Positions 38,543-39,079 of a DNA stretch of 64,000 nucleotides are shown here, piece by piece. Made by a program: the position numbers and the translations under genes. The DNA lies in the NCBI GenBank assembly GCA_965116465.1, contig OZ220687.1, positions 1,894,321 to 1,958,320 on the forward strand, written 5' to 3'. The DNA is from Acidimicrobiales bacterium. Lineage in GTDB: Bacteria > Actinomycetota > Acidimicrobiia > Acidimicrobiales > CATQHL01. Within the stretch, counting starts at the first letter, position 1, and each line of letters starts with the position of its first letter. The notes beneath the pieces are model-generated. The model was not told the DNA's origin and searched no databases. It saw only the letters and a program-made list of their open reading frames with translations.

Positions 38543-39079
38543 TCAGGCGGCGCATGCAGCCTCGATCATGGGCAGTAGCTCCTGCTGCACCGCCTTGACG
38601 ACGATGGGCCGCAGTTCCTCCATCGGCAGCACTTCGGTGTCGTGCGGCAGCACGATCATCGGCAGCTCAGGCATTCCCCGGCTCTGCATCGTTGCATCGG
38701 CAAGCTCCACGAACGCCTCGGTGATGATCACCACGGTCGCGATGCCCCGCCGTCTCAATTCTGTTCCGTCGTGGCAACTCCACGCTGTGCAGGCTCCTCA
38801 ATTGCCGAGCCCCAGGATGGCGTAGTGGCTGCTGTCGGTGACTTCGTCGAGCACCTCCGGGGGCGTCGGTTCGGAGTGCTTGATGCGCCAGTGCCGCACA
38901 CGCCCTATCCGAGGGTGCGGGGTCAGCTGCTCGTCGATGATGGCGGCGATGCGGGTCATGCTCTCCCAGCGAGAATTGAGTATCGAGACATTGATCTCCA
39001 CAGCCTCGATGGGCTTCAGCTCGTCGGCCTCGTCGAGGCGGCGAAACTCCTCGGCCCTGGGGTCAAGAATGACTGTCAT
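38543..39079 (-). CDS. Selenoprotein, 178 aa, Sec at codon 94 (UGSC-type U-G-x-C motif); split into two ORFs by the ORF track
   Basis: ATG 39079 (GAGGAG RBS, ATGA overlap with the DUF4387-like gene) reads ...YAILGLGN-TGA(38800-38798)-GACTAWSCHDGTELRRRGIATVVIITEAF... in one frame to TGA 38543; SECIS-like hairpin follows the internal TGA. Confidence 0.85.
38770..38784 (-). promoter_or_regulatory. Bacterial SECIS-like hairpin
   Basis: mRNA CGUGG-AGUUG-CCACG: 5-bp stem and 5-nt loop with G at loop position 2; the loop starts 18 nt after the UGA, fitting the bacterial SECIS consensus. Confidence 0.65.

Follow-up and report, generated by a model that had tools for sequence, protein, structure and literature searches.

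A predicted UGSC-family selenoprotein and its conserved partner gene in a catabolic operon of an Acidimicrobiales bacterium

A 64,000-nucleotide stretch of the genome of an Acidimicrobiales bacterium (GenBank assembly GCA_965116465.1, contig OZ220687.1, positions 1,894,321 to 1,958,320; hereafter, the window) contains, on its minus strand, a reading frame that runs from an ATG at 39079-39077 to an end at 38545-38543 and is interrupted by exactly one in-frame TGA, at 38800-38798 (residue 94). Is this frame the remnant of a broken gene, a pair of short genes, or one gene in which the UGA is read as selenocysteine (Sec), and, if the last, what might its product do? Our answer is that 39079..38543 is a single gene for a 178-residue protein of the UGSC family, with predicted incorporation of selenium, and that this protein probably works together with the product of the adjoining gene, an unnamed protein here called X351. 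The best overall explanation of the locus, which combines a Sec gene, a two-part enzyme with X351, and chemistry resembling that of PrdB and GrdB, has in our estimate a probability of roughly 0.6.

Reading through the in-frame TGA

The elements of the gene, all on the minus strand, are the following.

38543..39079, minus strand: UGSC-family selenoprotein gene (predicted), 178 amino acids (aa) with the motif U94-G-A-C97, final stop included in the coordinates; 108 bits against PF24696
38798..38800, minus strand: putative Sec codon UGA, residue 94, aligned to TGA in 16 Sec forms and to Cys in Cys forms
39086..39093, minus strand: ribosome-binding site GAGAGGAG, 6 nt 5' of the UGSC ATG
38770..38784, minus strand: hairpin CGUGG-AGUUG-CCACG, resembling a selenocysteine insertion sequence (SECIS); 5-bp core of the 8-bp helix of the family

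The statements about the sequence made in the original prediction, an earlier reading of this DNA that had proposed a selenoprotein gene here, were all re-derived and are correct, including the frame, the ATG with its ribosome-binding site, the single TGA, and the hairpin with its loop. The start codon, kept in orthologues (MTV.LDP), shares the sequence ATGA with the stop codon of the DUF4387 gene upstream, and the protein context around the TGA reads LGLGN-U-GACTAWSCHDGTELRRRGIATVV. The 3' half had been said to possess no start of its own that would cover the GACT segment; indeed, the earliest possible start 3' of the TGA is a TTG at 38758, downstream of that segment.

The source genome, assembled as one 3.53-Mb contig of 69.8% GC, encodes three UGSC copies, and each of the three has a single TGA, always within the same motif: GD-U-GACTACSLHD, AD-U-GSCVSCSVHD, and, in the window, GN-U-GACTAWSCHD. 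The Sec machinery, for which a search had been proposed, is present in full, with selA, selB, and selD scoring over the curated cut-offs (selA and selB sit 12 kb outside the window) and a tRNA-SeC(tca), anticodon UCA, detected by ARAGORN. The selD gene (G000:C1:3196066-3196998, outside the window) is itself a TGA gene, with the motif HGAG-U-AGKLGP and a hairpin 3' of the TGA. Of 301 genomes sampled from the phylum, 22 encode UGSC; roughly 60% of the copies contain a single TGA, and the remainder have none and read CGSC, with Cys aligned to U. Homologues thus carry either TGA or Cys at the position of residue 94, the pattern for which the original prediction had suggested looking.

Orthologous operons (L026, L028, and L029) were retrieved via the neighbouring gene. 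The TGA is kept in the orthologues within an identical core, LGLGN-U-GACTAWSCHDGTELR, and gene callers have split every one of them into pieces of ~93 and ~70 aa, the same cut that open reading frame (ORF) calling makes in the window gene, as had been recognised. The locus is therefore a clean example of Sec genes lost from annotation. Four orthologues retain the TGA with pairwise ratios of nonsynonymous to synonymous divergence (dN/dS) of 0.10-0.25 on either side of it, at dS values of 0.6-1.7.

If the TGA were a true stop, the locus would hold either a nonsense pseudogene or two separate proteins of 93 and ~71 aa, and it can be said for this that gene callers annotate the split form in all relatives and that the window hairpin (see below) is statistically unremarkable by itself. 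However, the four orthologues keep the TGA across that synonymous divergence with both halves under purifying selection, one alignment column holds the TGA in the three paralogues and in most of the family and Cys in the rest, the GACT segment is unreachable from any start codon, the predicted single domain takes strands from both halves, and the Sec machinery is complete. Because of the TGA conservation, the dN/dS values, the Cys alignment, and the Sec machinery, we exclude the pseudogene and the two-ORF readings, whose remaining probability we regard as negligible. The reading of TGA as a sense codon under an alternative code was also rejected on comparative evidence: TGA serves as the terminating stop of both the UGSC gene and its neighbour and is therefore not generally a sense codon here. 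In the representative library, a low-GC orthologue from the window subfamily (P0124) appears as a full-length protein in which W occupies the Sec position (LGLAN-W-GACTAWSCHDG), where the gene caller most likely read TGA as Trp under another genetic code. Judged from these comparisons, UGA-94 is a putative site of selenium insertion, predicted to be recoded to Sec by the SelA, SelB, SelD, and tRNA-Sec of the genome with the help of the hairpin.

The window hairpin starts 13 nt after the UGA, has its loop at 18 nt, and carries a G at loop position 2. Canonical Sec forms all share the element GUCGUGC-AGUGU-GCACGAC, beginning 11 nt 3' of the UGA, whereas the Cys forms encode other residues at the hairpin site and have no hairpin. 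Across the 16 distinct Sec forms (the extra UGSC Sec forms were taken from called gene ranges), 89% of the cells of the 8-bp helix are paired, compared with 12-57% in controls with the partner slid, and the helix has a higher covariation score than any of 500 shuffles. At the central pair, 21/27, nine of these sequences have C-G and seven G-C, with none unpaired; the swap at this pair couples a Cys-to-Trp change on one arm with a synonymous Val change on the other (Val-to-Cys in the window). Among the window orthologues, the synonymous sites of the hairpin are invariant and the flanking third positions variable. The hairpin of the window provides weak evidence when considered by itself. Generic 5-bp Watson-Crick hairpins with an early loop G, 11-20 nt after a codon, are found at 6.6% of positions drawn at random from this genome of 70% GC, the exact geometry of the window hairpin at 0.23%, and folding energy was dropped as an argument because its z-score of -0.24 is not distinctive. 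An Rfam search with the hairpin element returned no matching family. It is the comparative evidence, the covariation at the level of the family and the loss in Cys forms, that carries the significance, and on these grounds the SECIS-like hairpin of the original prediction is upheld.

Family membership, fold, and relation to PrdB and GrdB

The 'UGSC family' hidden Markov model (HMM) mentioned in the original prediction exists and matches the protein: the read-through product scores 108.4 bits against PF24696 (UGSC; gathering cut-off, 25) over residues 4-166, and U94-G-A-C97 aligns with UGSC or CGSC at the conserved column in relatives. Against NF041046 the score is 79.2 bits, below the equivalog cut-off of 125, and naming the window protein at the equivalog level is not justified because it belongs to a divergent subfamily. 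A word-indexed homologue search with the read-through protein yielded one match only, since gene callers split Sec genes and the window copy is divergent; homologues were gathered instead by exhaustive phmmer and six-frame genome searches. A sequence search of the PDB with UGSC gave nothing meaningful. On its sequence, the window protein belongs with confidence to a known family, in which it is divergent.

The 'UGSC-containing protein' was first mentioned in 2007, by Zhang and Gladyshev, as a selenoprotein without assigned function, in a paper that also names Hyphomonas neptunium as a UGSC carrier (PMC1976440), and in the Global Ocean Sampling (GOS) metagenomes UGSC was among the most abundant selenoprotein families, with 255 Sec against 21 Cys forms (PMC2398784). 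The 2008 authors called its fold 'likely' thioredoxin (Trx)-like and described its fusion to a domain named 'Unknown_1' (PMC2398784), possibly X351; reviews of 2022 and 2026 still list UGSC as uncharacterised. One of the most abundant selenoproteins of aquatic metagenomes has thus been without an assigned function for nearly twenty years. The 'hidden selenoprotein' of the original prediction belongs to this family, published in 2007-2008 (PMC1976440, PMC2398784), and represents a known annotation artefact rather than a discovery, so that the earlier interpretation, largely right, overstated what was new. Since both the family and the fusion had been published before, our own gain over what was known is incremental: the additions are a controlled homology to the PrdB/GrdB module, a corrected fold, and good documentation of a partner at the locus.

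The AlphaFold2 model of UGSC, built from a 75-sequence alignment, has a predicted local distance difference test score (pLDDT) of 93.3 and a predicted template modelling score (pTM) of 0.87 and comprises one (beta-alpha)x5 domain. In the model, U94 sits at the N-terminal end of helix 95-110, in the loop that follows strand 3, C97 provides the U-x-x-C, and one sheet is built by strands from both 'halves' of the TGA-containing frame. Foldseek comparison with the PDB retrieved only flavodoxin-like or similar three-layer sandwiches (MdaB and flavodiiron flavodoxin domains) at template modelling (TM) scores of 0.4-0.53, with no thioredoxin among the top 50 matches. UGSC is thereby modelled as a single flavodoxin-like alpha/beta domain, and the published Trx-like guess is not supported, because the model is (beta-alpha)x5 and thioredoxin is missing from the Foldseek matches.

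The original prediction described UGSC as a PrdB/GrdB-like Sec protein. The part of this claim that stands is a remote homology of the Sec module; membership of the GRDB family (PF07355) does not, as the HMM never matches UGSC genes. When the UGSC alignment was compared by hhalign with GRDB Sec modules in read-through form, the match reached a probability of 95.1% (P = 2.9e-8) over 69 columns, covering UGSC residues 75-152, whereas the reversed template gave 1.3%, twenty column shuffles gave at most 0.7%, and the X351 profile gave 0.2%. Masking of the U-x-x-C columns left 90.8%, and the long and short GRDB subsets taken separately gave 83% and 70%, respectively, in the same region. All 32 GRDB-family genes sampled from the phylum are TGA genes with the register of UGSC (U0, C3, E15, G18, I19, P20), the long forms reading ...ILTAT-U-GTGTRCGSTLAKELERAGIPTALL and the short forms ...LLTPx-U-PxCxxSVGL...IExxGIPTV. 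As called, these genes (L035-L044 and L047-L068) end at the TGA, and the in-frame continuation extends for 82-197 or more residues; by this pattern they are predicted Sec genes truncated by ORF calling.

As a positive control, the GRDB model has matches in 54 of the 301 phylum genomes, four of which also have UGSC, and never at a UGSC locus. The claim that no PrdA/GrdE proprotein accompanies the gene holds for the whole genome, in which the PrdA/GrdE model (Gly_reductase, PF09338) finds nothing at E <= 10, and GrdB is likewise not encoded. Profile comparison of X351 with the parts of GRDB proteins showed no relation, and X351 was rejected as a relative of PrdA/GrdE or of the GrdB N-domain after no similarity was found. 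By these alignments, UGSC is a stand-alone remote homologue of the selenoprotein B-type Sec module, with a different partner, and is not a member of the GRDB family. Within the literature that could be searched, which guesses at a Trx-like fold, we found no paper stating a UGSC-PrdB/GrdB link. The statistically controlled link turns the vague label of 'redox protein' into a testable mechanistic hypothesis.

X351 and the surrounding genes

The most informative feature of the locus, absent from the original prediction, is the conserved X351 gene directly downstream of UGSC.

37480..38535, minus strand: X351, unnamed partner of 351 aa, starting 7 nt past the UGSC stop; invariant Cys84 in NAVMAGC

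The genome holds exactly three copies of X351, each adjoining a UGSC copy, with the gene order either way. Within the phylum sample, 21 of the 21 genomes with solid UGSC matches also have X351, 28 of 31 UGSC matches lie within 750 nt of an X351 match (a count for the phylum sample only), and two genomes have UGSC and X351 in one 580-aa open frame. Exhaustive phmmer searches returned single-chain UGSC-linker-X351 proteins of 485-564 aa, three of which were verified (P0128, P0157, and P0187). All five distant X351 homologues on long contigs adjoin a UGSC gene, usually split, and the wider contexts of these five pairs differ, featuring TctC, TRAP/ABC binding proteins, coenzyme A (CoA)-transferases, MaoC, thiolase, P450, PrpD, a thiamine pyrophosphate (TPP) enzyme, and LarA. 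An exception to the pairing is a contig (G281:C272) with ORFs of 664 and 782 aa, each consisting of two tandem X351 N-terminal halves, from a fragmented genome in which no UGSC was detected. A 13-kb sequence, L030 (ena:ERZ25039475 contig_27511), holds two UGSC Sec genes, the queried X351, and Pfam-less genes of 335 and 365 aa, and may represent a multi-copy cassette.

The X351 family includes more than 7,900 clusters, all labelled 'hypothetical', and searches with X351 itself found no counterpart in Pfam, even at E = 10, in NCBIfam, or among PDB sequences. Its invariant core comprises DGLPxxxP, NxxMAGC84, QxTT, NGP, NxxxGRxxR, D168, K177, ExE, and W191, with H258 near-invariant and Cys84 the sole invariant Cys. 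The AlphaFold2 (AF2) model (pLDDT 92, pTM 0.93) has no neighbour with TM > 0.3 in a Foldseek search of the PDB; class I fumarase and Toblerone-fold hydrolases were considered as fold relatives and set aside, the matches being too weak to use. The locus thus supplies a defined candidate partner from an unnamed family with neither a Pfam model nor a structural neighbour. Because the polar, Cys-containing core of X351 is strongly conserved and the gene adjoins or is fused to UGSC across lineages, we consider it probable that UGSC is the selenium subunit of a two-part enzyme of which X351 is the other part.

A different division of labour would make UGSC a dedicated electron carrier, in a thioredoxin- or GrdA-like role, that maintains Cys84 of X351 in the reduced state or supplies reducing equivalents, leaving the chemistry, which need not be reductive bond cleavage, to X351 alone. 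A U-x-x-C at a helix N-terminus is classic redox-motif geometry, the single invariant Cys of X351 could form a mixed selenosulfide, and the family is regarded as redox-active in the literature (PMC2398784). An electron relay is further suggested by an extra CPTC domain on some X351 paralogues: the paralogue at locus B (G000:C1:663237-664709), one of the two other pairs in the genome, is extended at its N-terminus by 150 aa that include a CPTC motif, probably a thioredoxin-like domain. On the other side, the predicted fold of UGSC is flavodoxin-like and not thioredoxin-like, the closest relatives that could be detected for it are not carriers but catalytic Sec modules, those of PrdB/GrdB, and the 255-to-21 excess of Sec over Cys forms in the environment (PMC2398784) is more typical of a catalytic residue. 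We view the carrier role as a possible but rather unlikely account, and continue with a catalytic selenium subunit as the preferred one.

In the window, the pair belongs to a translationally coupled string of minus-strand genes in the order DctP-DctQ-DctM, AtuA-like, DUF4387, UGSC, X351, acyl-CoA dehydrogenase, short-chain dehydrogenase/reductase (SDR), and beta-keto acid cleavage enzyme (BKACE), and the entire string, from the tripartite ATP-independent periplasmic (TRAP) transporter to BKACE, is conserved in relatives at orthologous loci. Pfam was used to tell genes from antisense frames, because GC content at third codon positions (GC3) did not separate them at 70% GC. Besides UGSC and X351, the string consists of the following.

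40862..44947, minus strand: TRAP transporter genes DctM, DctQ, and duplicated fused DctP, at the head of the string
39402..40865, minus strand: AtuA-like gene (PF07287, 72 bits)
39076..39402, minus strand: DUF4387 gene (PF14330, 98 bits), translationally coupled to UGSC
36362..37483, minus strand: acyl-CoA dehydrogenase (Pfam), overlapping the X351 stop
35619..36365, minus strand: SDR (Pfam)
34531..35619, minus strand: BKACE (Pfam), with the true start probably near 35535, because orthologues are 334 aa long

The surroundings of the pairs at the two other loci of the genome are of another kind: CoA-transferase, SDR, flavoprotein, luciferase-like, and old yellow enzyme (OYE) genes at locus A, and an ABM monooxygenase gene, before the X351 paralogue, together with a UPF0261/phosphoenolpyruvate (PEP)-hydrolase-like pair at locus B. 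The constant unit across the three loci is UGSC plus X351.

These contexts bear on a further alternative, in which the Sec/Cys pair is not a redox centre and instead serves to bind or pass on a metal, sulfur, or selenium species, with X351 as acceptor or donor. Metal chelation by the canonical U-x-x-C-x-x-C is conceivable, one of the distant pairs has a rhodanese gene in its vicinity, and no flavin, NAD, or Fe-S domain consistently adjoins the pair at the loci examined. Nevertheless, conservation does not extend to the third Cys, which the window copy has in a displaced position; the pairs occur in clusters for organic-acid catabolism and not in metal- or sulfur-trafficking operons; and the module is homologous to the Sec modules of reductases. 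All of this makes the alternative improbable next to the two-part enzyme that we prefer.

Several other features of the window deserve mention. The TRAP solute-binding protein gene (42758-44947, minus strand) is a 729-aa ORF formed by tandem fusion of two near-identical DctP halves, relatives have either one DctP gene of 672-684 aa or two genes, and a plus-strand ORF at 42671-44662 is the antisense shadow of the fused gene. Facing the UGSC operon, at 27325-34255 on the plus strand, are a hydantoinase/oxoprolinase A gene, an acetamidase/formamidase-like gene, and two B-subunit genes, the latter in tandem and highly similar (29409-31250 and 31222-33069, plus strand). A second acyl-CoA-dehydrogenase-like ORF (47807-48913, minus strand) resembles that at 36362-37483 and adjoins P450 and AMP-binding genes.

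Proposed function and comparison with known systems

PrdB/GrdB offer an analogy from which to sketch what the two-part enzyme might do. X351 would bind the substrate, which the selenol of U94 would attack or reduce; C97 would resolve the intermediate, giving a selenenylsulfide; and this would be re-reduced by a thiol system, a part that the CPTC domain on the X351 paralogue of locus B might play. The substrate could be an organic acid imported by the TRAP transporter, or a derivative or CoA ester of it, with processing by the products of the AtuA-like/DUF4387, SDR, BKACE, and acyl-CoA dehydrogenase genes. We hold this sequence of steps only tentatively, and the reductive C-N/C-S/C-O cleavage put forward in the original prediction is a putative activity, stated there too strongly.

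A number of observations weigh against the overall explanation. The window hairpin has only 5 bp, with a folding-energy z-score of -0.24 (56 nt). The window copy falls in a divergent subfamily, as its score below the NF041046 equivalog cut-off indicates; the canonical motifs VGLLDxSKPRGD and HPIQDRTDDE are not found in it in the family alignment, and its third Cys is displaced, with W in its place. The GRDB model (PF07355) has no match to the UGSC protein at E <= 1 or to the genome at E <= 10, and the homology to PrdB/GrdB spans only ~70-80 residues. X351 is unrelated to PrdA/GrdE and to the GrdB N-domain, and the mechanism is therefore not simply transferable. Finally, the CPTC extension of the locus B paralogue has its best matches among thioredoxin-fold proteins, which are weak (TraF, E = 0.0065; thioredoxin, E = 0.57).

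A bolder and more speculative extension, to which we assign a low probability, is that UGSC and X351 form an unrecognised and very widespread class of selenoenzymes of aquatic heterotrophs, in which a PrdB/GrdB-type Sec module is combined with a substrate subunit of novel fold that replaces the pyruvoyl proprotein. Such an enzyme would reduce or remove a substituent of an organic acid, and its genes would make up a portable cassette found in many catabolic clusters; the window would then present that cassette inserted in a TRAP/AtuA-like/BKACE/acyl-CoA dehydrogenase operon.

Compared with the UGSC family at large, the window copy has the same domain, the U/C-G-[SA]-C motif at the same column, the same size, and the same SECIS position, but its subfamily is distinguished by LGLGN-U-GACTAWSCHD, the sub-equivalog score, and the lack of several canonical motifs. 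Where canonical UGSC has the third Cys, the window protein has W, and its hairpin carries a compensating change.

Thioredoxin-fold CxxC/UxxC oxidoreductases, the fold proposed for UGSC in PMC2398784, share with it the redox-type U-x-x-C at a helix N-terminus, whereas the topology predicted for UGSC is (beta-alpha)x5.

A further parallel is with the selenoprotein B subunits of D-proline reductase (PrdB) and of glycine/sarcosine/betaine reductase (GrdB/GrdF/GrdH), Pfam family PF07355, in which, as in UGSC, the Sec follows a beta-strand and opens a helix, with U0, C3, E15, and G18-I19-P20 in the same register and then a strand. The motif reported for GrdB is UxxCxxC (PMC13188914), and the canonical U-G-S-C-T-S-C of UGSC fits it. 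Unlike these proteins, UGSC lacks everything N-terminal of the Sec module, and its partner is the unrelated X351, whereas theirs are the pyruvoyl proproteins PrdA/GrdE. The settings also differ, PrdB and GrdB being found in Stickland fermentation operons and UGSC in the catabolic clusters of aquatic heterotrophs.

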